Of a stretch of 61,628 nucleotides of DNA, positions 16,441-41,498 are shown one piece after another (the first letter of the stretch is position 1; each line of letters begins with the position of its first letter). The DNA is taken from the UHGV virus genome UHGV-1709118. The stretch is one strand, 5' to 3'. Under the pieces are notes generated by a model. That model saw only the letters and a list, made by a program, of their open reading frames with translations, did no database searches and was not told the origin of the DNA. The translations under genes and the position numbers were made by a program. The stretch comes from a virus.

Positions 16441-19400
16441 TTATTTTCTAATACTAGCATATTGAGCCGCATCATTAACAATATTATTAAGAGCTGCTTC
16501 GATTTCTGCTGCACTGGATACACCAGGGAAATCAGCTTGAATATGCACTATCTGTTCAACTATTTGCCCATCACTAGAAATGGTAGTAGAACTAGCCATA
16601 CGAGCGTTTAATAAATTTTGCCCTGCCATTATATTATTATCCAAAATTCTTTCTATTTGTTTAAACAAATTAGGCCCTAATGTTCTAACTGCGGAAACCG
16701 CAGAAAGAATATTTTCAGTATCCTCTTGATTCAAAACTAATTCTTTCTCATGTAAAAATGCTAATTTGCCATCTTCATTATCAAAAGAACCAGTATATCC
16801 TCCTGTTGCATAACCTATTGTATGACTTTTAACAAAATCCTCATATTTGCCAGTTCCGCCATTATCTTTTAGCCATTTCTGAAACTCTGGATCATTTTGC
16901 TTATTATAATAATCTTCATTAGAATAAATATACTGTTTACCTTGTTCAAAATTTTCTCCAAGAATTTTCAAATATCTTTGATATTCTAAACTCTTAAATA
17001 TTTCATCTCCAACTTGTCCACCTTGGCTTAAATAATCATTCATAACAGAAGAATAGTCAATATTAGAATTATACCCTTTCATATCACCAACAGAAGCGGC
17101 AACTGTTCTAGTAGTTACAAAGTTAGACATTTCATACAAAGTATCTAATGCTTGACGTACACACGCTGCATAATTAGACCATTGCTCTGAAGCTTGGCGA
17201 ACTTCTTCAATTTTCTTCCAAACAGCATCTGCGGCTTGAGTACCCGCAGTAGTTAAATCTTGAGTAGATTTAGTAGTATCATCAATAATTTGTTTTAAAG
17301 CATCTACATTTGAACCAGTAGTCCCAGTGACTTCTTCCATAGTGCTATTATAATTATCAGCCGCATTTTCCATTTCATCAAGAGCAGTTTCAAAATATGC
17401 AGTAAAATCAGAAGTACCCATTTGCATAATTTTCATTACATCATTATAAGTATTTCCATATTCTGTAATTATCTCTCCACCTGCATCTGTCATATCTTCT
17501 AAAGATACTTGATATTCTTGCTGAATATAAAGGATTTTATCATTTGCATTTCTACGAATTTCTGCAATCTTTTCTCCACGTTCTTCCTCAGTTAAACTTT
17601 CATCTTCATAAACATCTTTAATTTGGTCTAAAGTATCTTGTTTTAATTGCAGAATTTCATCCATCATATTTTTAACTTGATCTTTCGCTATATTGTAATA
17701 GTTATTTGCCGCATCTTCATACTTTTGTGTAGCTTCATCAATTTTAGACTGATCAGCTGTAAATTGATAATCCCAGTTGCCGGATTCATTGCGGACTAAC
17801 CGCACTGAATTTTTAGCGTTTTGAGCTTCATCCAAAGCATTTTGAGCAAGAGTCATTTGATATTTTGCTTCTAAAATATCCAAATCATATTTAGATAATT
17901 TATTACCTTCACGTCTTACTTCAATTTCTTTTTGTAATGTTTTTAATCTATTCTTAGAAGCTTCATTAGTTTCTTCATCTATTGCTTTTTGAAGTTGTCT
18001 ATTCCATTTACTTACTTCATATGTTTCATTAACTTTATCTAAATATCTTTCTTCTTTACTAATTAAATTATCATATTTTTGCTGCAATAATTCTAAACCC
18101 ATTCCGCCACTAATAGCTTGCTCAAAATCATAAGCAGCTTTCTCAATAGCATTAGTATAATACTCTCTTGCCGTTTCCATAGCTTCTTTAGCTGCATCTA
18201 ACATAGCTTCTTGAGATTCATTAAATTGTTTTAATAAAGCATCACGATTATTTTTAAGAGTATCATAAGCTGCATCTTCTTCAGTAACTCCAGCCAAAGC
18301 TTTTTCTGCTTCTGCTAATTGTTCCGCAGCTTTTTCCATCCATTGCTTTTGTAATTTGGCAGTAGATGTAGCTGTTTCTAATCTTCCTTGAATAGTTTTC
18401 TGTAAAAGTTCAAAATTCTTACCAGTTTTATAAGTTATTCCTTGTAAATCTAATAATTCTTTTACTGAATCTAATACAGTACCATTATGATCTAATTGAT
18501 CAGTAAATTGTGCAAATCTGTCAGCTGCCGCATCAATAACATCAGTTAAATACTCTCTAAGATTTTCTAACCAATCTTTTAAATCAGAAACAGTATCAGC
18601 AATATTACCATGTAAATCTTCTAAAGAATCTATAACACTTTCAAAATCAGCACTGTCTTCAGACTCAGACATAAGATTAAATATTTGATTCATATGTTCT
18701 TCTAAGTCTTTGGCTTTAGCTAAATTGTCTTGCATACCAAAGAAATCAATTTGTCCAGGTTTTTTACCCCAACTAACAGCATCGCCAAAAGCTTCAACAA
18801 CATTTTTACCTATTTCTCTATTAGTATCTTTAAAATCTTTAATCTTTAATTTAACTTCTATAACAGCATTAATACTGCTTAATTTTTCATCAAATTTCTT
18901 TCTAGCCTCTTCGGCAATATTTTCTAAAAGTTCAACTCTTTGCTTTTGATCATTTTCATATTGTTCTAAGATTTCTTTTCTTAAATCAAGCGTTTTCTTT
19001 GCAGCATCAAGAGTATCTTTAAAAGATTCCTGTGCGGTTTTAGAACCTAAAGCATTATATTTTCTTACTACTTTATTATATTCTTCTATTGCCCATTTTT
19101 CTAAATCTTCATAATTTAATAAAGCTTTACTATCAGAATCTATATTTAATTTAACACCAGAAAAATTCTTTTGTAAATCAGTTAAATCTTCTTTTAAATA
19201 TTCTTCAGTTTTTTCTAATTTTTCTTTATATAATTCTTGCTCTTTGTTAATTGCTTCAATTTTTTCTTTATATTTTTCTAATTTCTTAACACCAAAAGCT
19301 CTATCTTTAGCAGTGTCAATCTTATCTAGTAGCTGACTTTGCTCTTCTAGTCTATTATTAATATCGTGATATCTATCATCAAAAATTTCTTCATCTTCGA

Positions 19401-22400
19401 TTTCAGGAGAATCATCTGAGCCAGAGCCGCCACCTCCGCCTTTTCCTTTTCCTCCCTTTCCTTTACCACCTTTGCCTTTTCCTCCTCCTCCACCAGAAGG
19501 ACGATTATTATCAGTAGAAATACCATGAGGATTAAGAGTTCCACTGCCAGTTCCTCCTCCCGAAGGGGCAAAGGCTTTTAAACCATTGGCTAAAACTTGT
19601 TGTTGACCAAACTTTTGTAATTCTTGACCTAATAACTCTAAATTACCGCCCACACTATTATCTTTATTAGGAATAGTAACTGTAGGTTTAGCACCTTTAA
19701 TACTTTTAGAATGACCAAGACTAGCATCCATACTAAACATAGGGCTTCCGCCAGAACCACTACCCTTTAAATCAATATGTGCAGAAGGCATATCCCATTC
19801 AAAAGGAATTTTTCCTCCGGTGACTAAAGCTCCAATTTTATCCTTTAGTCCCCCGCCTAAGCCAATACCACCAGGATTATCAACAACGCCAGTTGCCTGA
19901 ATTGAATAATTAAAATTATTAATAGCTTTTCCCAAAGACACCAAAAGTTGTCCTGCTATTTGACACAAACTACCAATACTAGCCTGTGATTCAGCGGCTA
20001 GACCATTAACTGCAGAAGAAGCAATACTTGTATTTCCTTGCATGGCACTGGCTAATTGACTTTGAGAAGTAATTAAACTAGAATCAAAACCTGCGTTTTC
20101 TGCTTCCATATGGGCCATGATTGCACTAAAAGCTTCAGCATTTGTATCTTTTAAAGACCAAATATCAGCAGCCATAGTGTTACACATATTTTTGAATTTC
20201 GTTGTTGTTGTATCAAAATTATCAGGAAACTCAAGCCAATTTTCATCATTTATATAATTTTTAAAATAATCATAATAAGAAGTAATATCATCTATTGCCT
20301 TTTTAAATCCTTCGGCTTGATCAACTTGTTTTTCCCAAGTATTTAAATTTTGAACTTTTTTCTGAGCATCTTTATAATCTTGTGTAGCTTTAGTTGCATC
20401 ATCAATATTATCAGTAACAACTTTATAACCATCTGCTGTTTTGGTAATATATTTATTAGATTTAGCAGTAATATTCATTAAAGTTTTAGTGCTTTTGACT
20501 GCACCAGCATAATATTCCTGCATATTAGTGCCGCCAGCTTCAACTTCACTAATTAAATCTCTAAAACCATCTGCCAAAGCAGAAGTAGAAGAAATCATAG
20601 TTTTTGCATAATCAAATTCTTTAAGATTATCTATACCATCACTTAATTTTGCAAAATTATCTCCAGTTTCATTAACTCTTTGATTTATTGCATCAAAATA
20701 TTCACTAGCGCTAATCTTTCCCTCTTGAAACGCTTGAGCCTGTCTTCTAAGTGTTTCAGTATTTTTATCAAAATCTTCTCCACTATCTGCACGCTCTTGG
20801 TCAGACCAATTTTTACTACTTTCAATTAAACTACCATAAAGATCAACATACTGCTGAGCATATTCTCTATCAACTTTACCTTTATTTTGCATAGATTCAA
20901 TAGCTTGATCTAATGCCAATTTCTCAGCTTTTTCCATTTCAGTAAAGTCGGTTAAAGATTGAGTAGTTAAAACATACTCATCTCCAACTTTTTTAATATA
21001 TTGAGCATATTCACTATTAGCTTTAATTAGCTCATAGGTTTGATCCATAGTAAGATAGCCCTGTTCTTTATAAGACATCAAAGCTTTTTCTAACGGCTCT
21101 TCACTGGTATTTAAATTTTCTATTTTAGCTTTTGCTGCATCTAATTCAGAAGTATCTACCTTAACTTTAAGGTCTGTATTTTTAGCATTTTCAATAGCTT
21201 CCATTAATTCTCTAAAAGAACCAATGTTTTCTAAATCTAAAGTAAGAATAATATCCCAATCTTCAGCAGTTAATTTATTTAATTGCTCTTCAGTTCCACC
21301 CATTTCAGATTTAATGGTTTCTCTAGCTTGAGACATTCTTTCTGCAATTTGATTAAATAAATCATCAACAGAAATTCCCGCAGCTTCAATGGCAGAACGC
21401 ATTTCATCTGTTAGAGCTAATCCAGCACCTTTAATATCTCCAGAAGATAAAGCTCTAAAAATCTTATCTCTTACTTCATCAAAAGATTCATCATCTAATA
21501 CTGGACGAATAACCATTTCATAATACTGGTTATCAGTAGGATATATTAATTTTCTTAATTCTGCTAATTTATCCTGCATATCTGCAATCATTGACGGATC
21601 GGCCACAATTGCGCCAGAATCAACAGCACCTAAGTAATTAGCATAGTCTTGTTCTAATTCAGCTAAATCTTCTCCTACTTCAGAAGTCATTTGTGCGGTA
21701 GCTTCTGCTATTTGTTGCGTCCAATTCTGATATTGGTCTAATGCTTTTGCCTGTTGGTCAGAATTTAAACTATTATACCATTTATCTAAATCTTCTTGCG
21801 TTTTGAAGTTAGAGGTATCGGCACCAGTTTTACCTTTTGGTTCTACCTTATAAGTCTTGTCATATTTTTTGTCAAAATTATCCGCAATAGCATAAGCCAT
21901 TTCTGCTTGTTTAGCTTTAACTATACGCTCTCTTAAAGTAGCTTGTCTCTCTAAAGAAGCTTCTTGCTGTTTTAAATTAGCTAGCTCATCTTGTTCAACA
22001 AGAGACAAAGAATCTTTAGACTCTAATTCTTCTATCTTTTGTTTAGTTTGCTCTAAAGAACTATTTAACTCATCTAATTTGCTCTTTTGGTCAGTATAAT
22101 TTTGAGTAGCATCCGTAATAGCTTGGCTAGCTTCTTTTTGGGTTACAACTAAAGCATCAACTATTTTTACAATAGCAACTATTGCAAGCGGAATACCTAC
22201 CAAAACACCTAAACTTGCTAAAACCGCCGCTGCAAAATTTTGTTCTGCTAAGGTCGCAAGTCTAGTAGCTGCTGCATGAGCTAATTTCGCAGCTATATTT
22301 CCTTCTTCCGCGGCAGTTGCTAATTTTGTGACAATAGTTCCAGCTAGAGTGGTTGCATTAGCACCAGCCTGAACTGCTTTTAAATCAGCTAATCCTTTAA

Positions 22401-25014
22401 TTAAACCATTAAAAAGACTACCACCACTCATCGCAATCATACCCAAATTGGTTAAAACTTGAGTAAAAGCTTGACCAACAGTAATATTACCTTCTGTAAC
22501 ATCTTGAAAAACTTTGCCCATATTGCTTGCCGCAGAAAGAGCCATTCCAAAATTCATAAGATGATTAGACATACTTACAACTGCTGTAGCCCAATTTTGA
22601 TTACTACTATAACCAGTTTGCAAAGTTTGTACAAATTGTTTCACTTTTTCTTCTAATAATCGAGTCTTATCTGCTGCATCCATTTCTGATGCAGACAACT
22701 CTTTCATTGAAATAATAAACTGATTAATAGCTTCAGGATTACCTCCTAAATCCATTAAAGCTTGTTTTAAAACTTGTAAACCACGAGTTGCTTCACCAGA
22801 TTGAACACCTAAATTGCCAAGAAATTCCTGTAATTTTGGTGTAGACCAATTTTGCATTTCTTCTTTCCATAAGCCAGTTTTTTGAATTAATTCTTGTAAA
22901 ACATTTGAAGTTTCTTTTTGATCTAAATTTAAATTGGCATAAGCTCTTCTAACAGAATCAATAGAAGCAGCCTGAGAAGCAAGTTTTTGCATATTAGCAG
23001 TAATCTTTTCAACTGTTGTATTTACGTCGGTAAAAGCTTGACCGTTTTTAAATATATAAGGAATATCAATATTTATTTTTGCGCTATTAGATACACTAGA
23101 ATTAAATTGTTGAATCCTTTGTTTGAACTTATCTTCCCATCCTGGTTTTGGTTCTATATCTAATAATATAGTAGTTTTATATTCTTCCATATTACCAAGT
23201 AAAGAAGTCTGCTTTTGAGCAGAAGCTACCACTTGCTGACGTAAAACTTCAATGGTACTTAAATCTTGATTAACCTTAGCCATTTGACTTTGATCATAAT
23301 TTTTAGTATATTTATTAATCATACCTTGCAATTGAACTTTTTCTCGCATTAGAGAAATTTCAGTTTCTAAAGCACGATTACCACCAATTATAATATCAAG
23401 ATTTTCCGCTTCAGCGACAGTTTGTTCTTGTAGGCTTCTTGTTAATTTTCCTTGATAACCTGTCATAATCTGAATATTAGTAGCAAAATTTTGTAAACCA
23501 TTTATCAATTTACCGCTATAAACAGAAGTAAGAACAGAACCAACAACCAAAGCAATACCTTTTAATCCACCTAAAGCATTAACAACTTGTGCTATTCCGC
23601 TTAAAAGTGGAGTTAAAACATCATCAATAGCAACAATGCTCTCAGGATTCAAAATGCTATCATAAATATCTTCAGCCGCAGCTTTAACTCTTTTTCTTGC
23701 AGCTTCCCAAGATTCTGCATAAATATCAGCTTGTTTATTTAATTCACCCTCAGAATTTTGAGCAACTTTTAAATTATCTTCAAAGAAATCCCAGTTATCC
23801 ATTAAAGAAACTAGCTGATTATATTGACGAACACCAGCTACTGTTTGTGCTAATGCTACTTGCTGGTCTTTTGCTAAAGTACCCCATTTTGCGCCTATAT
23901 CATCTAAGATAGAATCCATATTACGCAATTCACCATTAGAATCTTTAATTAAAATGCCAACTTTACTTAAAGCTTCCGAATATTTATTTAAATCAGTACC
24001 ATCTTCAAGAGTTTCCCCTAAATTTAAACCTTGAATACGAGCAAAGATAGTTTTTAAAGCAGTACCAACGACATCTTCACTTTGACGAGTTGTAGCAGTA
24101 ATTGTTGCCAAAGCAGAAGCAGCATAATCAAAGCTCAATCCAATCATGTCTGCGATTGATGCAAACTTCTCTAAACCACCTGCAATCTCATCCGAACTAG
24201 AAGCAGTAGCAGCACCTAATGCCACCATCGCATCAGCATAATGCTCTAATGATTGTGAACCATCATAGAAGTTATTCCAAACCGCAGTTAATTGGTCAGA
24301 AACTACTTGAGCACTTTCATTTGCGGCATTAGCCATTTTAATAGTAATATCAGTTCTATCAAGAACTTCTTTATCATTTAAACCTTGCTGATAATATATC
24401 AATGCTGCGTCCGTATAATCTGTTGTTGTTGTACTTAAATTTTTTGCAGCACTATTAGCTTGAACTGCAAAATCAGCCATTTGTTCAGCTGACTGTCCAG
24501 TAACAATTCTAATAGAATTTAAAGATTTGTCTAAAGCTTTAGAATACCCAACACAAGTATTTAAAGCTCCCATAAATCCATGTAACGCACTTGAAGTTAA
24601 TTGCCAACGAGCAGTATTTTTCATTGTTGTCCACAATTCATCTAATACTTTATTAGTACGTCTCATCGGTAATTCCGCAGAAGTAACTGCTTGCGCAACT
24701 TTCATAAAAGCTTGCTGACCAGTAGGGCCTAATTGAGATAATTGCTTAGCATAATCACTAATGGTCATCTTACTATTAGCTAAATTTCTATTAAAAGTTA
24801 CTAAATCTAATTTTCCTGTTTCTTGATTAGTAGCAGTTTTTAAATTATTAGCTAATTCTAATGCAGATTTAGATGCTTCCCGCATACCCTGAGTCATTTG
24901 AGTAGTTGAAGAAGTACCTAATTTTTGTAAAGCTTTTACAGCATCATTTAAAGACGCTTTTAATTGTGAAGTATCGCCAGTAAAGCCTACTTCATAATTA
25001 AGTCTTTTAGCCAT
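16441..25014 (-). CDS. tail tape measure protein
   Basis: 2857-aa, largely helical/coiled-coil ORF between chaperone-like gene and tail tip genes; internal Gly/Lys low-complexity tract. Confidence 0.8.
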   Translation of the reverse strand: MAKRLNYEVGFTGDTSQLKASLNDAVKALQKLGTSSTTQMTQGMREASKSALELANNLKTATNQETGKLDLVTFNRNLANSKMTISDYAKQLSQLGPTGQQAFMKVAQAVTSAELPMRRTNKVLDELWTTMKNTARWQLTSSALHGFMGALNTCVGYSKALDKSLNSIRIVTGQSAEQMADFAVQANSAAKNLSTTTTDYTDAALIYYQQGLNDKEVLDRTDITIKMANAANESAQVVSDQLTAVWNNFYDGSQSLEHYADAMVALGAATASSSDEIAGGLEKFASIADMIGLSFDYAASALATITATTRQSEDVVGTALKTIFARIQGLNLGETLEDGTDLNKYSEALSKVGILIKDSNGELRNMDSILDDIGAKWGTLAKDQQVALAQTVAGVRQYNQLVSLMDNWDFFEDNLKVAQNSEGELNKQADIYAESWEAARKRVKAAAEDIYDSILNPESIVAIDDVLTPLLSGIAQVVNALGGLKGIALVVGSVLTSVYSGKLINGLQNFATNIQIMTGYQGKLTRSLQEQTVAEAENLDIIIGGNRALETEISLMREKVQLQGMINKYTKNYDQSQMAKVNQDLSTIEVLRQQVVASAQKQTSLLGNMEEYKTTILLDIEPKPGWEDKFKQRIQQFNSSVSNSAKINIDIPYIFKNGQAFTDVNTTVEKITANMQKLASQAASIDSVRRAYANLNLDQKETSNVLQELIQKTGLWKEEMQNWSTPKLQEFLGNLGVQSGEATRGLQVLKQALMDLGGNPEAINQFIISMKELSASEMDAADKTRLLEEKVKQFVQTLQTGYSSNQNWATAVVSMSNHLMNFGMALSAASNMGKVFQDVTEGNITVGQAFTQVLTNLGMIAMSGGSLFNGLIKGLADLKAVQAGANATTLAGTIVTKLATAAEEGNIAAKLAHAAATRLATLAEQNFAAAVLASLGVLVGIPLAIVAIVKIVDALVVTQKEASQAITDATQNYTDQKSKLDELNSSLEQTKQKIEELESKDSLSLVEQDELANLKQQEASLERQATLRERIVKAKQAEMAYAIADNFDKKYDKTYKVEPKGKTGADTSNFKTQEDLDKWYNSLNSDQQAKALDQYQNWTQQIAEATAQMTSEVGEDLAELEQDYANYLGAVDSGAIVADPSMIADMQDKLAELRKLIYPTDNQYYEMVIRPVLDDESFDEVRDKIFRALSSGDIKGAGLALTDEMRSAIEAAGISVDDLFNQIAERMSQARETIKSEMGGTEEQLNKLTAEDWDIILTLDLENIGSFRELMEAIENAKNTDLKVKVDTSELDAAKAKIENLNTSEEPLEKALMSYKEQGYLTMDQTYELIKANSEYAQYIKKVGDEYVLTTQSLTDFTEMEKAEKLALDQAIESMQNKGKVDREYAQQYVDLYGSLIESSKNWSDQERADSGEDFDKNTETLRRQAQAFQEGKISASEYFDAINQRVNETGDNFAKLSDGIDNLKEFDYAKTMISSTSALADGFRDLISEVEAGGTNMQEYYAGAVKSTKTLMNITAKSNKYITKTADGYKVVTDNIDDATKATQDYKDAQKKVQNLNTWEKQVDQAEGFKKAIDDITSYYDYFKNYINDENWLEFPDNFDTTTTKFKNMCNTMAADIWSLKDTNAEAFSAIMAHMEAENAGFDSSLITSQSQLASAMQGNTSIASSAVNGLAAESQASIGSLCQIAGQLLVSLGKAINNFNYSIQATGVVDNPGGIGLGGGLKDKIGALVTGGKIPFEWDMPSAHIDLKGSGSGGSPMFSMDASLGHSKSIKGAKPTVTIPNKDNSVGGNLELLGQELQKFGQQQVLANGLKAFAPSGGGTGSGTLNPHGISTDNNRPSGGGGGKGKGGKGKGGKGKGGGGGSGSDDSPEIEDEEIFDDRYHDINNRLEEQSQLLDKIDTAKDRAFGVKKLEKYKEKIEAINKEQELYKEKLEKTEEYLKEDLTDLQKNFSGVKLNIDSDSKALLNYEDLEKWAIEEYNKVVRKYNALGSKTAQESFKDTLDAAKKTLDLRKEILEQYENDQKQRVELLENIAEEARKKFDEKLSSINAVIEVKLKIKDFKDTNREIGKNVVEAFGDAVSWGKKPGQIDFFGMQDNLAKAKDLEEHMNQIFNLMSESEDSADFESVIDSLEDLHGNIADTVSDLKDWLENLREYLTDVIDAAADRFAQFTDQLDHNGTVLDSVKELLDLQGITYKTGKNFELLQKTIQGRLETATSTAKLQKQWMEKAAEQLAEAEKALAGVTEEDAAYDTLKNNRDALLKQFNESQEAMLDAAKEAMETAREYYTNAIEKAAYDFEQAISGGMGLELLQQKYDNLISKEERYLDKVNETYEVSKWNRQLQKAIDEETNEASKNRLKTLQKEIEVRREGNKLSKYDLDILEAKYQMTLAQNALDEAQNAKNSVRLVRNESGNWDYQFTADQSKIDEATQKYEDAANNYYNIAKDQVKNMMDEILQLKQDTLDQIKDVYEDESLTEEERGEKIAEIRRNANDKILYIQQEYQVSLEDMTDAGGEIITEYGNTYNDVMKIMQMGTSDFTAYFETALDEMENAADNYNSTMEEVTGTTGSNVDALKQIIDDTTKSTQDLTTAGTQAADAVWKKIEEVRQASEQWSNYAACVRQALDTLYEMSNFVTTRTVAASVGDMKGYNSNIDYSSVMNDYLSQGGQVGDEIFKSLEYQRYLKILGENFEQGKQYIYSNEDYYNKQNDPEFQKWLKDNGGTGKYEDFVKSHTIGYATGGYTGSFDNEDGKLAFLHEKELVLNQEDTENILSAVSAVRTLGPNLFKQIERILDNNIMAGQNLLNARMASSTTISSDGQIVEQIVHIQADFPGVSSAAEIEAALNNIVNDAAQYASIRK

Positions 25015-27454: not shown

Positions 27455-27594
27455 ATACTTATTTAAAGTATCTTCTGTTGCTATATCCCCAAATAGCCCT
27501 TGATATTCTGCGGGAATATCAGTTTTATCTACAGTACCAACTAAAGAATAGGTATTCCCTAGTTGACTAATTTTAACATTACTATTTGGGGTAA

Positions 27595-28536
27595 TTAAAA
27601 AACCGCCTTACAATTCTCGCGGTAAGCGGTATCTTCACCAGTGCTATCTTCAATTACCTGAATAGCAGCAAGAACCTTTTTAGTAGGATCAAACTTAGTG
27701 TATCCAGGGAAAGCATCCATAGTAAAGGTAAAGGTAGAAGGATCGCCAGAACTTGCCATAGAGAAAGTAAAGTTAGACTGAATCTTACCATTAGGAATGA
27801 TGAACTCAGCAGGCATGTCAACACCATCAGACTCTCTACGGAATAAAGTAGAACCTTCTAGGTAATAACTACCAGCAAATTCATCAGGAGTAATTTCAAT
27901 CATCTTAGCATTGCCAGTCTTCTTAACATAATAGTCAACAAGAACAACAGAACCTTCAGCTAATTTCTCAACACCTTCAGCATCAGCGTAACAAACAATA
28001 GTAGTTTTCTTCTTAGTGTCATCATAAGTCATAGAAGCAGGGACACAAGGCTCAACTTTAACTTCACCGGCATCATCAAGAGCCATGCAGAAAACATCTG
28101 CTTCCTTATGGAAATCATAATTTGTTCCTGACTTATCCCCTTCTTGCGCACGTCCGCCATTCCAGCAAATTTTACCATCAACAGCAAATTTGCCTTCAGC
28201 ATCAACCTGCACTTGAGAAGTAGTATGAACATAAATAGGGGCTTCTGCAGAAGCATCCATCAAACCAGCACCGGAAAGAATTGCAAAACTTTCAGGGGAA
28301 AGCAATGCATCTTCCATTGTAAATGTAAGAGTCTTCTCACCTTCCCAGGCAATTAATCTAGAGTTACCACGTCCGCCTTGAGCATAAACTGTGGTAGCTT
28401 GACCTTCTAAGCTAGAAGTCTTTAAAGTATCAAAATAAAGAACAGGCTCATTCTTATAAAAAGTACGAGCACCTAGAGTTTGTCTTGCTTTAGCACGTAA
28501 CACAACATCACAGATCTCGCGTACACCAAATCTCAT
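27595..28536 (-). CDS. major tail protein candidate
   Basis: 313-aa ORF, GC-rich relative to neighbours like the capsid gene, located between connector genes and tape measure. Confidence 0.45.
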   Translation of the reverse strand: MRFGVREICDVVLRAKARQTLGARTFYKNEPVLYFDTLKTSSLEGQATTVYAQGGRGNSRLIAWEGEKTLTFTMEDALLSPESFAILSGAGLMDASAEAPIYVHTTSQVQVDAEGKFAVDGKICWNGGRAQEGDKSGTNYDFHKEADVFCMALDDAGEVKVEPCVPASMTYDDTKKKTTIVCYADAEGVEKLAEGSVVLVDYYVKKTGNAKMIEITPDEFAGSYYLEGSTLFRRESDGVDMPAEFIIPNGKIQSNFTFSMASSGDPSTFTFTMDAFPGYTKFDPTKKVLAAIQVIEDSTGEDTAYRENCKAVF

Positions 28537-28557
28537 GTTTATTTTCCTCCTTATAAA

Positions 28558-29292
28558 TTAATGAATGTTTTTCATCCAATTTTCCGCATCTTGTTTGGGG
28601 TCTCCACCTGCGAGCCTAACCCGCAAATTTAAATCCCATTCAATAAACAGATTATATCTTTCAACCAAATCAAATAGTTGATATATTGTTAAAGCCAGAC
28701 AATTTTCTAAAGACATAGAGGAAATCCCTATTGTTAAAATAGAAACATATCTGCTTAACACGCTTTCTTGATTTTTTCCCTTTAATTCCGCAACTCTTTT
28801 TCTGCCTTTCATTAATTTATCAGCAATTTTTTTTGCAGCTTCATTCGCAGGATTATAAACAACATTATCTCCCTGAAAAATACTACTTATACAAAACATT
28901 TGTTTTAATATTTCTTGTAAAAAAACATAATTATTATCATCTATTAAAATGCTTTGTTTTGTTTGCAAATTATTAAGAATAATGCTCTTTGGAGTAATTA
29001 TTGGTTTAAATCCTGGAAACAAAAGAGAAAGTAAAGTTATTAAAGCTATTTTCTTCTCAGCATCTTCTGATTGTTCAATAACTTTCATCAATACTTGAAA
29101 ATTTGTTAAACTCTGTAAAAGACTTTCGTCCTCTAACAAAGCTTCTTTATTTAAACATAAATAATGAATTGCCATAAAAAAATTTTGTTCACCCATCCTC
29201 GCAATTTCTTTTAATTGCGGTTGATGAATAATTGCTTGTAACTCAGGTATAGGAATATCTACACCTGCCATTAATGCTAATTTAATATCCAT
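28558..29292 (-). CDS. head-tail joining / tail completion protein candidate
   Basis: 244-aa ORF in connector region. Confidence 0.35.
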   Translation of the reverse strand: MDIKLALMAGVDIPIPELQAIIHQPQLKEIARMGEQNFFMAIHYLCLNKEALLEDESLLQSLTNFQVLMKVIEQSEDAEKKIALITLLSLLFPGFKPIITPKSIILNNLQTKQSILIDDNNYVFLQEILKQMFCISSIFQGDNVVYNPANEAAKKIADKLMKGRKRVAELKGKNQESVLSRYVSILTIGISSMSLENCLALTIYQLFDLVERYNLFIEWDLNLRVRLAGGDPKQDAENWMKNIH

Positions 29293-29293
29293 A

Positions 29294-29830
29294 TTAATTC
29301 AAAGGATTAACCTTATCTTCATTACCTCTAACGGCCCAATATCTTAAATTAATTCCTGCAAATTCATTATCTATGAGAATTTGTTCTGCACTAAGAAACT
29401 GTAATTCTCCAATCCCAGTTAAATGTTGTCCATCTAAAATAGAATCTAACTCCCCAGCTATGCGATAAGGTCTTAACTCAAAATCTCCTAAATCCCATGA
29501 ATCATAATGACAAATAATTTTAATATCTATCATATGATTTCTATAATAAGGATTAGTATCATTCGGAACAAAATCATCATAACTAATTCTCAGATAAGTA
29601 GCTTTATCTGGAAAAACAGTAATCTTAGGTATATTAGATATTTGTTTATTTTCAAATAGCTCTTTTATTTGTTGATTATTTAAATCAGGTTTATCTTTCC
29701 AATCCCTAGAAGTATAATAAATTAATTTTAAAATATTTTTATTGGTTAAAATTTTATTTATAATCAAAGCTGTATCTTTGGCCATACCCAAAAAACTAGA
29801 CTTTGGAAATTCATATAAATTTTTTTTCAT
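29294..29830 (-). CDS. head-tail connector protein candidate
   Basis: 178-aa ORF. Confidence 0.35.
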   Translation of the reverse strand: MKKNLYEFPKSSFLGMAKDTALIINKILTNKNILKLIYYTSRDWKDKPDLNNQQIKELFENKQISNIPKITVFPDKATYLRISYDDFVPNDTNPYYRNHMIDIKIICHYDSWDLGDFELRPYRIAGELDSILDGQHLTGIGELQFLSAEQILIDNEFAGINLRYWAVRGNEDKVNPLN

Positions 29831-29849
29831 TCCTTTTTCTCCTTTAGCT

Positions 29850-30815
29850 TTAGAATAATGATTCTACCACTATTGTTTTTGTTTCTACAATATAGTCTTT
29901 ATACCATTCTAAAGTAAATTGTCCACTAACCGATTTTTGCCAAATTACTTTAACCCGCAAATCATCGACAGGAATTAAACAAACTGGATAATTTTCAACA
30001 ACTTTCCATTTTCCTCCCACATCTGGGGCTTCATATATTTCAGCAATATTAGGTTTAATAAAAGTTTCTCCCTTTATAATTGTATCAGGAGATGGATCAA
30101 CAGGCTCTATAACTAAACCATTTTTAATTTCTTCTATTTTATCATCTGTTTCCTTATTAATATAATATTCTTCCGCATTAACTTCAATAATATTCTTCAT
30201 TGAAATTGAATCTGGAGCTTGTACTTGCCAGCATTTTCCAGCAAATAAAAATTCTGAATATCTATCAAAAGCAAATAAAGTTTGTTCATTTTTAGGTAAT
30301 AAAATATTTAAACTTAAATTTGGTTTATCAACTCGGACTTGTCCTTTTTGGATAGATTCAATTTGTGTTTCCACAGGGCCTCTAATCGCCGCCCAAGTAG
30401 AACAAATATTTCCTTTTTCATCCTTAAATTTTATTTTATGGCGACAAAGCCTAATTTCACCTCTAAAATAAGCGTCCTCTGTTAAGGCTCTTAAATAAAT
30501 AATCCAATTAGTATCAGTGCCAACCCACTTAAAAATATCTCCTAAATCATAATTATATTTATAATCAATAGAAAGAACTTTATCATCATAGTCTTGTTTT
30601 AATTTATCAGGATTAATCAAAGCTCTATATTGCGGTTGAATCTCTTCTAATTCAAAACAATCTGTATATTTTTGAACTAATTCTACATTACAACCTTGAT
30701 AAGAATATAATAAACTTTTTAAGAAAGCTCTATACTTATCATTTATCATTCTATCCTCTTGCTTTAATCCACCAAAATATTCAAGACGTTTGTGCATTAA
30801 TTCTAAATTATTCAT
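29850..30815 (-). CDS. structural protein, hypothetical
   Basis: 321-aa ORF. Confidence 0.35.
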   Translation of the reverse strand: MNNLELMHKRLEYFGGLKQEDRMINDKYRAFLKSLLYSYQGCNVELVQKYTDCFELEEIQPQYRALINPDKLKQDYDDKVLSIDYKYNYDLGDIFKWVGTDTNWIIYLRALTEDAYFRGEIRLCRHKIKFKDEKGNICSTWAAIRGPVETQIESIQKGQVRVDKPNLSLNILLPKNEQTLFAFDRYSEFLFAGKCWQVQAPDSISMKNIIEVNAEEYYINKETDDKIEEIKNGLVIEPVDPSPDTIIKGETFIKPNIAEIYEAPDVGGKWKVVENYPVCLIPVDDLRVKVIWQKSVSGQFTLEWYKDYIVETKTIVVESLF

Positions 30816-31113
30816 AAGGCATTAACCTCACTAATAAATCTATACAACGAAAAACTGTTTTTCTATATATCATAAAATCATTACAAACTTCAGATTTTAA
30901 TCCTTCAAGTTTAGATAATAAAACTAAAAAATCAATTTGATTTTGATATATTTCATTTAATCCACTAATTTCTTCTATCATTACTGATAAATGTGTATCC
31001 CAAGGTTCATTATTTTCTCTCATTGGAATTAATTTCCATAATTGATTAACCAATCTATGAGTGTCTGCTTTAATCACTTTTTTATCAAACTCAAAATTAT
31101 ATTTATTAATCAT
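30808..31113 (-). CDS. head-tail adaptor candidate
   Basis: 101-aa ORF, overlapping neighbours. Confidence 0.3.
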   Translation of the reverse strand: MINKYNFEFDKKVIKADTHRLVNQLWKLIPMRENNEPWDTHLSVMIEEISGLNEIYQNQIDFLVLLSKLEGLKSEVCNDFMIYRKTVFRCIDLLVRLMPYE

Positions 31114-31600
31114 TAAAGGTACTTATCTCCGCAAGAGTAGACCAATTAGATTTAATTGACCCCTTAGAATCAATAATTTTTCTACGTTTGTATAAACGTT
31201 GCATGTGGCGATCTTGTCTTTCGCCTTCTTGTTTAAGTTTGATAAGTTTATCTAAATGATTAGCTTGACTGGTCATTTTGAAATCAGAACCTGAAAATTT
31301 TTGCCTAGTATTTTCAATAGAAGCTACTTGTCTTTGAAGCCAAGTATTATACATTAAAATAGCGAGGATATTTATTTCCTCGCTAGTTAAATGACAATTA
31401 TAAGAATCTTCATTGTAATCATATAAAGGAAAACGTGGAAATTCAAAACCAGGAATAGCATCAATTAAAATATTTTTTACATCTTTTTCAGTATCCTCTT
31501 TTGTCCATTCCACATACATATCATCAGTAATTTTGCCAAAAAATCTATCATAAATTTCTTTAAAAGTAGTATTTGGCCCAGTGATAGGATAATCTGACAT
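31106..31600 (-). CDS. head completion protein candidate
   Basis: 164-aa ORF. Confidence 0.3.
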   Translation of the reverse strand: MSDYPITGPNTTFKEIYDRFFGKITDDMYVEWTKEDTEKDVKNILIDAIPGFEFPRFPLYDYNEDSYNCHLTSEEINILAILMYNTWLQRQVASIENTRQKFSGSDFKMTSQANHLDKLIKLKQEGERQDRHMQRLYKRRKIIDSKGSIKSNWSTLAEISTFND

Positions 31601-31620
31601 AATAATGTCCTCCTTTATAT

Positions 31621-32178
31621 TTACTCGTCTTTCTTTACAATCTTTTTATAAGTAGGATTAGAGCGACGCTTAGTTGTCTCTATCTGCTGACCAGGGGCGA
31701 CGGTTTTTCCATCTTCTGTTTCAACAGAAGCATTAATAATCGCTTTATCAACATCAAATTTTAACTGTTCTTTTAAAGCTTCTCTTTTATCTGCGGCATT
31801 AAGAGGAACCTCAACTGCGTACTTTTTAATTAAGCTAATGATTCCTTCGGGAGCAAAATCAAGAGCATCCTTAAACTCATTAAGAGAACAAGAATTAATC
31901 CACTTAGGAATATCGCTTTCCTTTAACCAATATTCGGGTTGTTCTTTAATATTTAAAGCACTTTCTAAAGCTTCTGCATTTTGAACAAATAAATAATTAT
32001 AAATTAATTCTCTACCTCCAGGCTGCTGCGCTAAAGCAAGAAGTTCACCATAAGGAATTTTTTTAGTTTCTTTGCGGTTAAACTCTCTACTTACATGCAT
32101 GTCTGGAACAGAATAAATCACAATACCATTACTACGATTAGTCACCTGTAAAATAGTATCTTTATTAAAATTTTCCAT
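31621..32178 (-). CDS. hypothetical structural protein
   Basis: 185-aa ORF downstream of capsid terminator. Confidence 0.3.
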   Translation of the reverse strand: MENFNKDTILQVTNRSNGIVIYSVPDMHVSREFNRKETKKIPYGELLALAQQPGGRELIYNYLFVQNAEALESALNIKEQPEYWLKESDIPKWINSCSLNEFKDALDFAPEGIISLIKKYAVEVPLNAADKREALKEQLKFDVDKAIINASVETEDGKTVAPGQQIETTKRRSNPTYKKIVKKDE

Positions 32179-32210
32179 TATAAATTCTCCTTTTTCTCAA
32201 AAAAAATAAA

Positions 32211-32238
32211 GGGGAGAAGGGAAAATCCCCTTCTCCCC
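32211..32238 (-). terminator. rho-independent terminator after major capsid gene
   Basis: 11-bp GC stem ggggagaaggg-aaaat-ccccttctcccc followed by T-run on minus strand. Confidence 0.65.
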
Positions 32239-32270
32239 TATTATTATTATATCTTATTTTTCAGAAATAA

Positions 32271-33308
32271 TCAAGATAGATCAACCTTATTATCAAGTTT
32301 ACCAGCAAGAGTGGTATCAACATAGGAGCAAATGTTATTAGTCAACATAACACCCACGCCAACCTTACGGTAAACCTGAATATCACGAGACCAATCTTCA
32401 TTCTCGCGCTCACGGACATGGGTAACACCCTCAAAAGCAATCTTGACAGGACGGCTATCTGCACCTGCGGGAATCACCCAAGCATAACCAGGATCAATGA
32501 CCTTACGGCTATTGGTTTCATCCTCAAAAGACTGAGGAAGAACAATAACTTGACAACCCTTGTAATTACCAAGATAACCCTGGCTCCACATCTCATCACG
32601 CATATTATCAGAAACCCAACCAGTAGCAGGAATCATTTTAACGGCGAACTCATAAGTACAGTAAATAGTAGGCTTACCATAAGCAGAAGCAGTCTGAATC
32701 AAATGATCCATACCAACCTCATTAAAGCCATTAGTCTGAACAGTATTGGCTTGAGGCAACTGAGAAATAGAACCCATTAGAGCTGCGGCAATCTCACGAT
32801 AAATCAGCTCATCCATGCCTTCCATAATAATATTGGTTAGCTCTGCAAAATCAGCACGACCATCCAAAAATTCCTCAAAACCGATCTGAGCAGCTCCGCC
32901 GATAGCGCTTGTCTGAACTTCAAAGCTCTCTTGACCAAGCTTAAAGACTTCATACACGCCAGCCAGACCAACACGAGTAACGAACTGCTTAGCTCTCATA
33001 GTACCCATCTTACGAGTAAAGACAGGACGATCACCCTGGTTAAAAGTCTTAGACTCAGCAAATTGACCATAGCGCTCTAAAACACGAGCAGGAAGAACCT
33101 CATTCATAGTCTCTTCTAATAAAGAGAAAATTAAATTCTTATTTTCACGATATAAAGAATAAGTACCAGCAAGAGCATTTAGCTCATCACGCAAAGTATT
33201 ATTCATTTCTTCATAAGTCATAGAAACTTTTTGAAAACTATAAGTCTTTGAAGGCTCACTCTTAGCAACAGCCTTCATTAAAGCTAAAAGATCATTCTTC
33301 TGTAACAT
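32271..33308 (-). CDS. major capsid protein candidate
   Basis: 345-aa ORF after scaffold-like gene, followed by strong terminator; elevated GC. Confidence 0.6.
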   Translation of the reverse strand: MLQKNDLLALMKAVAKSEPSKTYSFQKVSMTYEEMNNTLRDELNALAGTYSLYRENKNLIFSLLEETMNEVLPARVLERYGQFAESKTFNQGDRPVFTRKMGTMRAKQFVTRVGLAGVYEVFKLGQESFEVQTSAIGGAAQIGFEEFLDGRADFAELTNIIMEGMDELIYREIAAALMGSISQLPQANTVQTNGFNEVGMDHLIQTASAYGKPTIYCTYEFAVKMIPATGWVSDNMRDEMWSQGYLGNYKGCQVIVLPQSFEDETNSRKVIDPGYAWVIPAGADSRPVKIAFEGVTHVRERENEDWSRDIQVYRKVGVGVMLTNNICSYVDTTLAGKLDNKVDLS

Positions 33309-33326
33309 TTACACTTTCTCCTTTCA

Positions 33327-33989
33327 TCAAGCAATACGCTGTAATTTAACTGCGGGCTGATTATCGGCTAAAGTATAAACCTTAACAACAATCCACTTCA
33401 TATCGCCAGCACCGGCGGAAGCAGCAGAAGCCTTATTCAAAAAGCCCTTCTCGTTAGGAGCTAATTCATCGCCCTCTTGTAGGCTAGTTTCATCAACACC
33501 ATTGGTAGTATAAATATCGCCGACATTAGTCTTGATAACACGAGGAACCATAGTAGTGCCATCAGCCATATTCTGAGGATAACTTAACTTAGGAATATCC
33601 CAAGTAAAGCCCTCGCTGGAACCCTCACGGAAAGCAGCCTTACTATAATCCATCACATGTTCTAAATCAGAATTACTCTGACCAACAGGACTATAAACAC
33701 GAGCATTATAATTCTGCTTAATCATAGCAAAATCTTCATAAGTCTCACGGTCTCTATAAGTCTTAACTTCATTAAAGACCATCATCCACTCGCCCTTACC
33801 AGTGAAATTAACTTCTTTATTCACATAGTCATACTTCACAAACTGGCCATTTTCCAAAACTTCAATATCACTCTTAGCGGGAAGCTGTGCGTAAATCTGA
33901 CCAGTGCGCTGAGCAGATAAATGGTTAGGCTCGACCTGGCTATAACCACGCTTAACAAACTGAGCACCGCTTAATCTTTTAATTGCCAT
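33327..33989 (-). CDS. capsid-associated protein (decoration or scaffold) candidate
   Basis: 220-aa GC-rich ORF immediately upstream of capsid gene. Confidence 0.35.
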   Translation of the reverse strand: MAIKRLSGAQFVKRGYSQVEPNHLSAQRTGQIYAQLPAKSDIEVLENGQFVKYDYVNKEVNFTGKGEWMMVFNEVKTYRDRETYEDFAMIKQNYNARVYSPVGQSNSDLEHVMDYSKAAFREGSSEGFTWDIPKLSYPQNMADGTTMVPRVIKTNVGDIYTTNGVDETSLQEGDELAPNEKGFLNKASAASAGAGDMKWIVVKVYTLADNQPAVKLQRIA

Positions 33990-34006: not shown

Positions 34007-35305
34007 TTACATTCCTTTTACAGCTTTCACCCAATCAGGTAAAGCATTAGTATCTTCCTGCTTAGCAATATTATTTAAATTAAAGCTAGTAGGAGCAGAA
34101 TCATCTTTTTTAGAAGCATTGTCAGGATCTAAATCAAAATTAACTTTCTTACGGAAAGCAATAACAGATAACTTAGATTCAATATCTTCTAAACTATATT
34201 TATCAATATTTTCAGAAACATCTTTCTTATCTTCATCAGAAAGCATAAAGAATTTACTAATAATATCTTCCTTACTCTTTCTATCAGCTTTAAGCTTAAA
34301 ATCTCTTAAAGGCTCAATTTCAGCAGTTAAATCTTCATTTGTTTTCTTTAAAACTGCAAAATCGGTAGCAAGATTATCATATTTAGCTTTTAGCTCAACA
34401 TATTCTGTAATCTCAGATAAGTTATATTCCTTCTTCTTCTTATCCTCATTTTCATCCTTATTTTCTTGCTCAGAATTGCCCTCAGACTTTTGATTTTTCT
34501 TAGAATCATCAGGTTCATTAGTAGTTTTATTCTGATCCTGGTTCTTCTCAGGCTCTTCGTTCTCTTTATTTTTAGCATAAGAGTTATCAGGTTCAACAAT
34601 CTGATTCTCAGGCTCATTATTTAAATTCTTGTTCTCAGCCATTTGATTTGCCAGACCTCCTTTTATATTATCAAGTAATGTATATATATTTTGTCGTAAT
34701 TGCGTAATTTGACCTAAAGCAAACTCTGACATTATTTGAGCGCCTTCAAAACAAGGCTCAAAATTTTCGCCTAAAATACAGAGTTTATCAATTACCGCTT
34801 CATTGATAATAAAGAATCTCTCATTAGAATTGTTACTTCCTGTCCAAGAACCTTGAACTTTTCCTAATTCCATAGATTGATTATTACCTTTCTCTATAAT
34901 TCTTTGACTTTCTGGATAAATACCTGTCCAAATTTGTCCTTCAGTCATTAAATATTCTCTAATTACTCCATCAGCATCTTGAAATTTTTGAAACCAAACC
35001 TTAGCTTGTGAGTCAATATAACCATAAGGCTTAGTCATATCAATTAAAGCAAAAGTACCATTATCATTAATTTGAATATCTCGATTATGCTCTTCAAAAT
35101 CCTGAGAGTCAAAATTATAATATCCAACAATAGGCGAACCAGGTAATTTACTACCCATTTTCCAAGCTACTTCTTTAGATATGTTAGTATGGTTGCGGTT
35201 ATCGCCCACATATAATACTTTTATTTGACAATAAGAAACATTAGGATTATCTTCTCGAATATTAATAAGCTCGACTGAATTTTCTATTGGTATACTTGTA
35301 TACAT
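34007..35305 (-). CDS. head morphogenesis/scaffolding protein candidate
   Basis: 432-aa ORF with highly charged (K/E/D/N-rich) central region, between portal and capsid. Confidence 0.45.
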   Translation of the reverse strand: MYTSIPIENSVELINIREDNPNVSYCQIKVLYVGDNRNHTNISKEVAWKMGSKLPGSPIVGYYNFDSQDFEEHNRDIQINDNGTFALIDMTKPYGYIDSQAKVWFQKFQDADGVIREYLMTEGQIWTGIYPESQRIIEKGNNQSMELGKVQGSWTGSNNSNERFFIINEAVIDKLCILGENFEPCFEGAQIMSEFALGQITQLRQNIYTLLDNIKGGLANQMAENKNLNNEPENQIVEPDNSYAKNKENEEPEKNQDQNKTTNEPDDSKKNQKSEGNSEQENKDENEDKKKKEYNLSEITEYVELKAKYDNLATDFAVLKKTNEDLTAEIEPLRDFKLKADRKSKEDIISKFFMLSDEDKKDVSENIDKYSLEDIESKLSVIAFRKKVNFDLDPDNASKKDDSAPTSFNLNNIAKQEDTNALPDWVKAVKGM

Positions 35306-35320
35306 ATTATTTTTTCCTCC

Positions 35321-36943
35321 TTAATTCATAGCTGCTCTATTGGCTATTGTTTTATCACTTTTCTGTTCATCTGCTTTTTCAGGTCTGCCAGCTCCAGTTT
35401 CTTGCTGTTGTTGTATTTTAGCCTGAGCATTATTATTATCTTTATTATTATTATTAAGGTTTTTACTACTCATAGTAGAACTCATCATAGGAGGAATCAT
35501 AATATCAGAAAGCTTCAATATATCATTCTCAAACTGAATAGAAGCTAAAATACTTGATTGAGAATGTCCTAAAGCAATTTGCGGTAACATTTTTGAATAA
35601 CCAATTTGAGTTTGTTCTTTATACATTTTGGACAAATCTTTATAATTATAAATAGTTGTCTCTAAAATGCAAACTTTAAAATTATAAGAATTTTTATTAA
35701 ACTTTTTAACAATTCTATTTAAAAGATTTTGATATTGATAAATCAAATCTCTCATTACTGCTTCATCATTGGCTATTGATTTTTCCAAAGATAAATTACC
35801 ATCTGTATTAAATAGATTTTGAGACACACCCAAATTATTATAAACAGTACGTTCAACTTTTTCTAAATCATCAGTTTTAGTTGTACTATTAGAATCTTGC
35901 ATATCTGCAACATCAATATCAGCAAAAGTAGTAAGAACATCCACTCCCACTGCCCGACGAAGCATCGCAACCGCATTATTATGTATATCTTTTGCTTCAT
36001 CAACGTCAAAAATTAAATCACCATTTTTATCTAATGGTAATTTTTGAATAACAATTTTTAATAATTGCTGCATAGTTTTTTTTCTATCTAATTCTTGCGC
36101 CTGGTCTAAATCTATAATTGAAGGAATTGCTCCTACCAACATAGGAAAATCATTATCGCCTAAATTAAATTTTACAGTACAATCTGGGTCTAACATTGCC
36201 CAACCCATTGAATCTCCAGGATAATCACCTTTAAGTCTATTTTCTTCATAATCTACATAAGCTTTTTGAATTTCTTTAGGAAACATTTTTAAAACTTTTA
36301 TTCTATACTGCGGATCAGTAAAATAAACATTAAAAAAACTCATATGCAATTCAACAACAGGATCAATACCTCTATTAAATCTACTGCGGCAATACTTTGC
36401 AGGTAACTGTTGTATACTAAATTTATCATTAAATTCTAAAATATAACCATAATAAGAACCACATTTAATTACTTCTAATGCAATATTTCCAAAAAGACGT
36501 TTAATATCAGAATTATCTAAATAATCTAAAGCTTTCATAAAATCATTTAATACTTTTTTTGATTCTTTAGCTCGATTATTATTAACAAAAGAAGTAGTAA
36601 CAAACCAATCATATTTATACAATAGAGCTAAATATTTACACATTCTTTGATAAATACCGCTAGCCTCATAAAAATATTTAGAAACTTCTCTTAAAGTTTC
36701 ATAATCATGTTTATCAATAGCATTAAGAATAAAAGCCTTATCGCCATAATTGCGGTTTACTTTTCTATAAATACCTAAGTTCATTACCGCATCATCTAAA
36801 GTTTTTAAGCCTACTCGAATTTTTGAAAAATCTTCCGGCACACTATCTTTTCCAAATTGAGCTTCATATTCTGATTTAGTAATAGGATTTCCGCGTAGCA
36901 TATTAAAACCTTTATTTTTAATTTCTACTTGTCTATCTCGCAT
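35321..36943 (-). CDS. portal protein candidate
   Basis: 540-aa ORF immediately downstream of terminase/endonuclease. Confidence 0.6.
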   Translation of the reverse strand: MRDRQVEIKNKGFNMLRGNPITKSEYEAQFGKDSVPEDFSKIRVGLKTLDDAVMNLGIYRKVNRNYGDKAFILNAIDKHDYETLREVSKYFYEASGIYQRMCKYLALLYKYDWFVTTSFVNNNRAKESKKVLNDFMKALDYLDNSDIKRLFGNIALEVIKCGSYYGYILEFNDKFSIQQLPAKYCRSRFNRGIDPVVELHMSFFNVYFTDPQYRIKVLKMFPKEIQKAYVDYEENRLKGDYPGDSMGWAMLDPDCTVKFNLGDNDFPMLVGAIPSIIDLDQAQELDRKKTMQQLLKIVIQKLPLDKNGDLIFDVDEAKDIHNNAVAMLRRAVGVDVLTTFADIDVADMQDSNSTTKTDDLEKVERTVYNNLGVSQNLFNTDGNLSLEKSIANDEAVMRDLIYQYQNLLNRIVKKFNKNSYNFKVCILETTIYNYKDLSKMYKEQTQIGYSKMLPQIALGHSQSSILASIQFENDILKLSDIMIPPMMSSTMSSKNLNNNNKDNNNAQAKIQQQQETGAGRPEKADEQKSDKTIANRAAMN

Positions 36944-37340: not shown

Positions 37341-37371
37341 TTATGAACTAAGAGTTTTTACTCTTAGTTCA
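37341..37371 (-). terminator. hairpin between terminase and endonuclease genes
   Basis: atgaactaagagt-tttt-actcttagttcat 13-bp stem. Confidence 0.4.
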
Positions 37372-41414: not shown

Positions 41415-41454
41415 AAAATTTTTAGATATATTAATTAAAAATAAAAAAAAATTT

Positions 41455-41485: not shown

Positions 41486-41498
41486 AAAGTAATTATTT

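Follow-up and report, generated by a model that had tools for sequence, protein, structure and literature searches.

GC-rich genes for a predicted capsid protein, a tail tube protein and a 220-residue protein in the AT-rich late operon of virus genome UHGV-1709118

Three late genes in the UHGV virus genome UHGV-1709118 are the subject of this work. The window (the whole stretch of DNA that was analysed) is 61.6 kb long and has 32.3% GC overall. Its late operon occupies 37 kb of the minus strand, from approximately 40410 down to 3489, and holds 25 late genes (3489-40410). They run in the order large terminase, HNH-like open reading frame (ORF), portal, 432-aa coiled-coil protein, 220-aa ORF and major capsid protein, followed downstream of the capsid gene by small connector-type genes, a 313-aa protein, a 2857-aa tape measure protein and large tail/fibre genes. 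The genes for the 313-aa, capsid and 220-aa proteins form islands of high GC in this operon (Table 1). We favour, with a probability of approximately 0.8, the explanation that translational selection and protein constraint act together on the highest-copy virion proteins.

The three genes and their products

The 345-aa protein is, as predicted by homology, an HK97-type major capsid protein. Its tblastn homologs in Bacillus phages Kirov and Thrax (E 7e-13 to 1e-9) are annotated as major capsid protein, the NCBIfam HK97-fold capsid model NF042927 reaches E 2.3e-4 (under its cut-off), and Pfam Phage_capsid_4 matches one member of the clade (6.9e-7). The order portal, protease, small ORF, capsid gene is common to the window and Kirov. 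The original prediction had presumed a major capsid gene among the three, and the annotated homologs, the Phage_capsid_4 match and the synteny agree with it. The protein is 50% identical to that of phAss-1 and 38% identical to those of Enterococcus phages EF1 and H1, and these relatives, like Kirov, are siphoviruses of approximately 130-165 kb.

A strong intrinsic terminator, found by terminator scan and visible in the sequence (32239-32210), lies 31 nt past the capsid stop codon and inside the 92-nt gap that precedes the next gene. It would make transcripts of the capsid and 220-aa genes more abundant than those of the genes downstream. The next gene, just past the terminator, encodes 185 aa. 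Its synonymous contribution to GC (defined below) is the fourth highest among the late genes, its orthologues are likewise intermediate, and its product may be another fairly abundant head protein.

For the 313-aa protein, an AlphaFold model was built on 34 homologs (pLDDT 69.5) and compared with the PDB using Foldseek. All 15 of the 15 matches with E<=1e-3 are siphovirus tail tube/major tail proteins (best E 5.5e-8), at template-modelling scores of only 0.3-0.44. The protein also matches phrog_2729 (virion structural protein) and is syntenic with the tail tube protein of Kirov. Its modelled fold thus identifies it as a siphovirus tail tube protein, in agreement with the original prediction that a major tail gene is among the three. 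Homologs carry a precomputed PF27173 assignment. In siphovirus tails, the length of the tape measure protein sets the length of the tail and hence the copy number of the tail tube protein. A tape measure of 2857 aa therefore implies a very long tail and many tail tube subunits.

RNA folding of the 140-nt non-coding gap 3' of the tail tube gene gives a structure of several hairpins and very high stability (-43.6 kcal/mol, z = -3.9, with 0 of 200 shuffles as stable), which is closed by an 11-bp long-range stem. The terminator scan found no T-run terminator in it, and it has no Rfam match. The element is possibly a 3' stabiliser or attenuator, and its link to the codon usage described below is uncertain.

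The 220-aa protein is largely beta and not coiled-coil, both by sequence and in its AlphaFold model (pLDDT 77.6, pTM 0.71), and it is conserved at 58-73% identity among the protein-database homologs listed. Its BFVD matches are all uncharacterised proteins of phages, and its PHROG matches are families with function unassigned. Foldseek of the model against the PDB gave no significant match; the sub-threshold matches include small capsid chains of phages T1 and FCWL1 (E 1.4-1.7). A helical scaffold is ruled out by the beta-rich sequence and model, and no test points to a capsid or tail tube protein either. The original prediction, which had placed this gene among the major capsid and tail genes, therefore fails for it: the product is a beta-rich uncharacterised protein with no PDB match. 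PDB Foldseek and BFVD gave no support for a decoration protein. Because the gene is directly upstream of the capsid gene, we infer a high-copy capsid-associated (decoration/cement) or assembly protein. For the three window proteins together, Pfam returned nothing, and PDB sequence searches with the three proteins and the capsid profile returned nothing significant.

Composition and codon usage

The other 22 late genes have GC contents of 0.229-0.335 (unweighted mean 0.290, SD 0.031) and a GC content at third codon positions (GC3) of approximately 0.15, versus 0.26-0.35 in the three island genes. Relative to those 22, the three genes have z-scores of 3.7-4.0 for GC, 2.9-5.4 for GC3 and -2.7 to -3.9 for the frequency of A at third codon positions (A3). 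They rank as the top 3 of 25 by GC and the lowest 3 of 25 by A3, and the chance that a pre-named trio fills such ranks is 1/2300. In 400-bp windows, GC peaks at 0.43-0.44 and falls to 0.26-0.30 within approximately 200 bp of the gene ends. The AT skew changes sign across the islands, the coding strand being depleted in A and enriched in T. A 99%-identical contig, L003, has a GC profile of identical shape, so the islands are not an assembly artefact.

These sliding-window and per-gene values confirm that the three ORFs are visibly richer in GC than their flanking genes. The percentages first given for them need minor correction: the gene means are 40-41% rather than 40-45%, and the flanking genes span 23-33% rather than 25-30%. 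The three ORFs are also not the only GC-rich part of the window, as approximately 45-61.6 kb is at about 40% GC too, with another codon pattern.

That region (~45000-61628) is a second compositional regime with dozens of small ORFs, including an antitoxin-like gene. Its frequency of C at third positions (C3) is 0.21, and GAC, CAC and AAC are at 0.36-0.39, which sets it apart from the late genes and from the three islands. We rejected the idea that it shares the codon usage of the three genes, as it is C3-rich and the correlation of relative synonymous codon usage is only 0.80. It may be an accessory/early region with frequent gene gain.

Table 1. Features of the window discussed in the text; the amino-acid and synonymous terms are contributions to GC excess
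Feature	Position	Strand	GC	GC3	A3	Amino-acid term	Synonymous term	Basis or remarks
Major capsid protein gene (predicted), 345 aa	32271..33308	minus	0.408	0.318	0.113	+0.041	+0.067	Homology, HK97 model, synteny
Tail tube (major tail) protein gene, 313 aa	27595..28536	minus	0.402	0.258	0.185	+0.060	+0.044	Foldseek, phrog_2729, synteny
Conserved beta-rich 220-aa protein gene	33327..33989	minus	0.412	0.353	0.118	+0.045	+0.068	Directly upstream of capsid gene
Intrinsic terminator	32210..32239	minus						13-bp stem with 8 G-C pairs, then T-run
Structured non-coding gap	27455..27594	minus						3' of tail tube gene
185-aa protein gene	31621-32178	minus	0.335		0.30		+0.033	phrog_30998
432-aa coiled-coil protein gene, in prohead protease/scaffold position	34007..35305	minus	0.306				+0.021	phrog_3313; coiled-coil type matches
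Portal protein gene	35321..36943	minus	0.280					phrog_2739 portal, E 1.7e-82; typical low-GC neighbour
HNH/homing-endonuclease-like ORF	36963-37331	minus						phrog_9084, 5e-29
Large terminase gene	37364-39109	minus						
2857-aa tape measure protein gene	16441..25014	minus	0.328					TIGR01760 tape_meas_TP901, E 1.8e-32
154-aa ORF	212-676	plus						
Reverse transcriptase gene, 328 aa	1368-2354	plus						Pfam RVT_1, 2.8e-14; phrog_1423, 2e-57
Apparent divergent control region	41385-41527							Late operon versus plus-strand genes
Minus-strand promoter	41414-41385	minus						11/12
Bidirectional terminator-like hairpin	41452-41488							17 bp
Extended -10 sigma-70-like promoter	41499-41527	plus						12/12, perfect
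Antitoxin-like gene	52938-53336							In the second compositional regime

To separate what the proteins demand from what synonymous choice adds, we computed the GC expected for each amino-acid sequence if it were encoded with the codon usage of the remaining late genes. The GC excess is approximately +0.10 per gene, with an amino-acid share of 40-58% and a synonymous share of 42-62%. The synonymous term of any other late gene is at most +0.033. On the amino-acid side, GC at first and second codon positions (GC1 and GC2) is raised, and the three proteins are richer in Val, Ala, Gly, Met, Arg and Pro and poorer in Ile, Asn, Leu and Lys.

On the synonymous side, A3 falls from 0.359 in the other late genes to 0.137 in the three. 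ATA is used for 0 of their 39 Ile codons and CCA for 0 of their 29 Pro codons, while GGA falls from 0.35 to 0.07 and GTA from 0.29 to 0.03. AAG rises from 0.17 to 0.76, CAG from 0.18 to 0.69 and GAG from 0.16 to 0.49, and CGT (0.18 to 0.68) replaces AGA (0.60 to 0.19). In the four-fold boxes, GCT, GGT, CCT, ACT and GTT go up and G-ending codons go down. GAT, CAT and AAT do not change, and AGG and TTG are barely up. Within-amino-acid chi-square tests give p values down to 5e-26. This shift has tRNA-like specificity and is not compositional drift. Nor is it a general rise in GC, the kind that the 45-61.6-kb region shows.

Conservation among relatives

Searches with the capsid protein retrieved seven loci from IMG/VR and 52 from species-representative genomes. 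The latter came from a scan of the capsid profile against 185,579 species genomes, and all 52 matches are contigs of metagenome-assembled genomes (MAGs), either of approximately phage-genome size or fragments. Late-gene orthologues were mapped at each locus, with TAG read as Gln where this restored the frames.

The three orthologues are GC-elevated in 100% of the loci tested (48, 51 and 38 loci), by a median of +0.07 to +0.08. In 84-90% of loci their A3 lies under the average for the remaining late genes (median difference -0.11 to -0.14), and in 66-80%, depending on the gene, it is lower than that of every other late gene. This pattern spans background GC contents of 27-48% and capsid identities of 31-99%; over the three orthologues together, identities range from 28 to 99%. 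Across lineages, the A3 shifts of the three unrelated genes co-vary (r = 0.85-0.93), and in 48 loci the codon signature of the 220-aa gene equals that of the capsid gene in strength.

The synonymous component is therefore gene-specific but lineage-dependent, and the amino-acid component is universal. A synonymous component tuned by lineage is the behaviour expected of decoding selection in different tRNA environments. For example, in EF1, which has a known Enterococcus host, the orthologues raise CGT from 0.34 to 0.80, ATC from 0.12 to 0.43 and TTC and AAC from approximately 0.2 to 0.5; GGT is up and ATA and AGA are depleted, with no loss of A3. Such a shift resembles the codon preference of highly expressed genes in low-GC Bacilli, so its direction appears to be host-type specific; this lends indirect support to a match between favoured codons and host preference. 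Bacillus phage Kirov has only a mild elevation of the amino-acid type, judged from per-gene GC, GC3 and A3.

The ancestry of the three genes is concordant with that of their neighbours, as far as sequence identity can tell. In L009, they are 60-73% identical to those of the window versus 47-76% for other late genes. Ranked by identity across loci, they have Spearman correlations with the portal gene of 0.69-0.79, versus 0.42-0.77 for other late genes.

Many contigs of the clade are 130-175 kb long, and they occur in MAGs labelled Eubacterium, Lachnospiraceae, Collinsella, Prevotella, Treponema, Succinivibrio and Methanobrevibacter. This spread indicates that the labels are binning noise and are unfit as host evidence.

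Stop-codon recoding in the relatives

In most relatives, phAss-1 among them, TAG codes for Gln; the standard code applies in the window, L003 and L009. The coding density of the window is 0.727 when translated with code 11 versus 0.736 with TAG as sense, and the stop codons of the 25 late genes are 21 TAA, 4 TGA and 0 TAG. In L001, L004, L005 and L008, reading TAG as sense raises coding density from 0.16-0.62 to 0.78-0.94.

In the recoded relatives, the three genes have 0.93 in-frame TAG codons per 1000 and the other late genes 14.5 (Fisher p 5e-105). As a share of Gln codons, TAG makes up 2.5% versus 32%, an approximately 15-fold avoidance. That the genes for the capsid, 220-aa and tail tube proteins shun TAG reflects decoding efficiency and not composition. 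We did not find it stated in the literature that we checked.

Explanations for the GC-rich islands

In the mechanism that we propose, the three genes would encode the products needed in greatest numbers: the capsid protein, the co-encoded 220-aa protein and the tube of a very long tail. Their expression and copy number are presumably high. With the genome under an A+T drive, two expression-linked forces would keep them at approximately 40% GC. One would be protein constraint, which retains Val, Ala, Gly, Arg and Pro and resists enrichment in Ile, Asn, Lys and Leu. The other would be translational selection, which strips A-ending codons and favours CGT, T-ending (and some C-ending) four-fold codons and AAG/CAG/GAG. 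The favoured codons would be those best read by the late-infection tRNA pool. The strong Shine-Dalgarno sites of the three genes, the capsid terminator and the 140-nt structure all fit high, separately tuned transcript levels and are no proof of them. Distinct codon usage in the most highly expressed virion proteins had been one of the two explanations first proposed. It stands to the extent that a codon-specific synonymous term of +0.044 to +0.068 is present and recurs in approximately 50 relatives, but it is incomplete, with 40-58% of the excess arising from amino acids.

Several observations weigh against this explanation. Shine-Dalgarno strength fails to set the three genes apart, as the sites are strong in most other late genes too. 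Approximately 10-15% of relatives lack the A3 avoidance. L039, whose capsid protein has 84% identity, has an A3 equal to that of its neighbours (with TTC, ATC, AAC, TAC and CAG strongly up), and L035 has no significant codon shift at all. Wilcoxon tests of the orthologue shift give p values of 1e-7 to 5e-11, which overstate independence because the loci are related. That the favoured codons are the best-decoded ones of the host or of the phage is a supposition, the genome matches being phage contigs in taxonomically inconsistent MAGs. Finally, the argument for a high copy number of the 220-aa protein is partly circular, since it starts from the protein's codon signature and position.

The other explanation first proposed was mosaic acquisition, i.e., import by recombination from a GC-richer phage lineage without amelioration so far. 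Composition does shift abruptly where these genes begin and end, large siphoviruses have mosaic genomes, an ORF resembling a homing endonuclease is nearby, and GC-richer relatives exist (phAss-1 and L048, whose late genes have 0.43-0.49 GC). However, the same orthologues are distinct in essentially every relative, at background GC contents of 0.27-0.48, and a single import is insufficient for this. The three genes also follow their neighbours in identity to relatives, as the correlations with the portal gene show. Flat GAT, CAT and AAT and reduced G-ending four-fold codons mean that there is no generic rise in GC, and the pattern is unlike the C3-rich accessory region of the same window. Two imports 4 kb apart would be needed, both falling exactly on high-copy genes. 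With concordant identity and a clade-wide signature, mosaic acquisition is not borne out, and we consider it very improbable.

Amino-acid composition alone, i.e., a need for Gly, Ala and Val with no synonymous selection, would account for the raised GC1 and GC2 and the amino-acid terms of +0.041 to +0.060, and it is the main type of elevation in distant relatives with Bacilli hosts (EF1, Kirov and L033-L036). As a sole cause it is refuted by the 42-62% of the excess that is left at fixed protein sequence and by the within-amino-acid tests, which makes it scarcely credible. A cause unrelated to decoding is quite unlikely, if easier to entertain. It could be protection of the A-poor mRNAs from AU-directed RNases or toxins, selection on mRNA structure, or strand-biased mutation that accompanies heavy transcription. 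In its favour, the coding strand has A down, T up and a flipped AT skew; the A-rich amino acids Lys, Asn and Ile are depleted too, and stable RNA structures flank the genes. Yet the pattern goes family by family as tRNAs would have it, with AAG/CAG/GAG up, AGG/TTG barely up, G-ending four-fold codons down and GAT/CAT/AAT flat, and AGA to CGT needs first-position changes. The direction of the shift moreover differs by lineage and host type, as in EF1 (a C-ending gain without A3 loss), and the scarcity of suppressor-decoded TAG in the three genes of recoded relatives is itself a matter of decoding.

A more specific version of translational selection, unlikely in our estimation, is that the clade's three highest-copy virion genes share a "codon dialect" (hardly any A-ending codons, AAG/CAG/GAG plus CGT and, in recoded members, hardly any TAG) tuned to a subset of tRNAs. 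Candidates could be the phage-encoded tRNAs with C at position 34 (C34), Lys-CUU, Gln-CUG and Glu-CUC, together with Arg-ACG, as seen in phAss-1. The 36 tRNAs of phAss-1, a nearly complete set, cover favoured and avoided codons alike, so they do not discriminate between tuning to host and to phage tRNAs. If the dialect were real, bulk virion-protein synthesis would be decoupled from the U34 and suppressor tRNAs on which the other late genes rely. This could serve for timing, or could protect the phage should the host deplete or cleave U34 tRNAs.

Other features of the window

The 432-aa gene next to the 220-aa gene corresponds by synteny to a putative prohead protease of Kirov; its GC is ordinary and its synonymous excess small. 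The HNH/homing-endonuclease-like ORF sits between the terminase and portal genes. L003 (99% identical; 763-5947) has approximately 2 kb of additional DNA inside the terminase region, and the terminase region of Enterococcus phage EF1 has an annotated HNH "phage intron". This suggests that the terminase region carries a mobile intron or homing endonuclease in some of these phages and lacks it in others.

Upstream of the late operon, an apparent divergent control region separates it from plus-strand genes. It contains promoters on both strands, the plus-strand one being an extended -10 sigma-70-like promoter, with a terminator-like hairpin between them.

At the left end of the window, adjoining the tail-fibre end of the late module, the 154-aa ORF is followed by an approximately 690-bp non-coding gap and then by the reverse transcriptase (RT) gene. 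This layout (212-2354) resembles the accessory gene-template repeat-RT (avd-TR-RT) arrangement of a diversity-generating retroelement. A search near the RT detected no pair of template and variable repeats in the window, and the target may be beyond the window's left end. The RT scores far under the curated NCBIfam cut-offs for group II introns, retrons and DRTs, and the PADLOC models for defence RTs match it only through the generic RT domain.

Searches for tRNA genes came up empty in the window and in all 59 structural-module loci, and no Rfam families were found in the window. GenBank phage sequences gave no nucleotide match to the three-gene region or to 45-61.6 kb.

Comparison with known systems

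Codon landscapes of this kind have been described by Lucks, Nelson, Kudla & Plotkin (2008, PLoS Comput Biol), who found non-random GC3 and codon usage along the genomes of 74 phages, with head and tail genes biased to host-preferred codons after amino-acid control (PMC2266997). The present case is alike in its GC3 and codon peaks in structural genes along the genome, strongest in abundant head and tail proteins. It differs in that preference was measured there against the host and here against the phage's own late genes. Only three genes are involved here, not the whole structural module; the signal is A3 avoidance at 30% GC, and it is conserved and co-varies over approximately 50 uncultured relatives.

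The amino-acid component also has a precedent. Under AT pressure, proteins shift from GARP to FYMINK amino acids, and constrained or highly expressed proteins resist this. In the window, the other late proteins are rich in Ile, Asn, Lys and Leu, whereas the three keep Val, Ala, Gly, Arg and Pro, which makes up about half of their GC excess. The difference is that the contrast is within one genome, between neighbouring genes of one operon, and not between genomes. Horizontal-transfer islands (mosaicism, morons) share the sharp GC steps at gene boundaries, but here the ancestry is concordant, the signature clade-wide and the synonymous pattern codon-specific.

The closest described relative is phAss-1, of the proposed Phassvirus: gut siphoviruses of approximately 135 kb that read TAG as Gln and are distant from SPbeta-like Enterococcus and Bacillus phages, with a published host prediction of Clostridia/Eubacteriales (PMC10607447). 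Its late module is syntenic with the window, its capsid protein is the 50%-identical one noted above, and its three genes have the signature too (A3 0.06-0.08 vs 0.21). It differs from the window in its genetic code and in having 36 tRNA genes elsewhere in its genome, versus 0 in the window's 61.6 kb.

Significance

The three islands are a clear instance of the already known expression-linked codon bias, with no new mechanism. Their practical use is in annotation: for AT-rich uncultured phages, sharp peaks of GC and GC3 together with low A3 mark capsid, tail tube and other high-copy genes where homology fails. In this way the signature singles out the 220-aa protein as one that is probably abundant in virions or in their assembly. 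The set of favoured codons (CGT, T-ending four-fold codons and AAG/CAG/GAG) is a host fingerprint and could aid host assignment in this gut phage clade. The shunning of TAG by the same genes in the recoded relatives bears on how stop-codon recoding relates to expression level.

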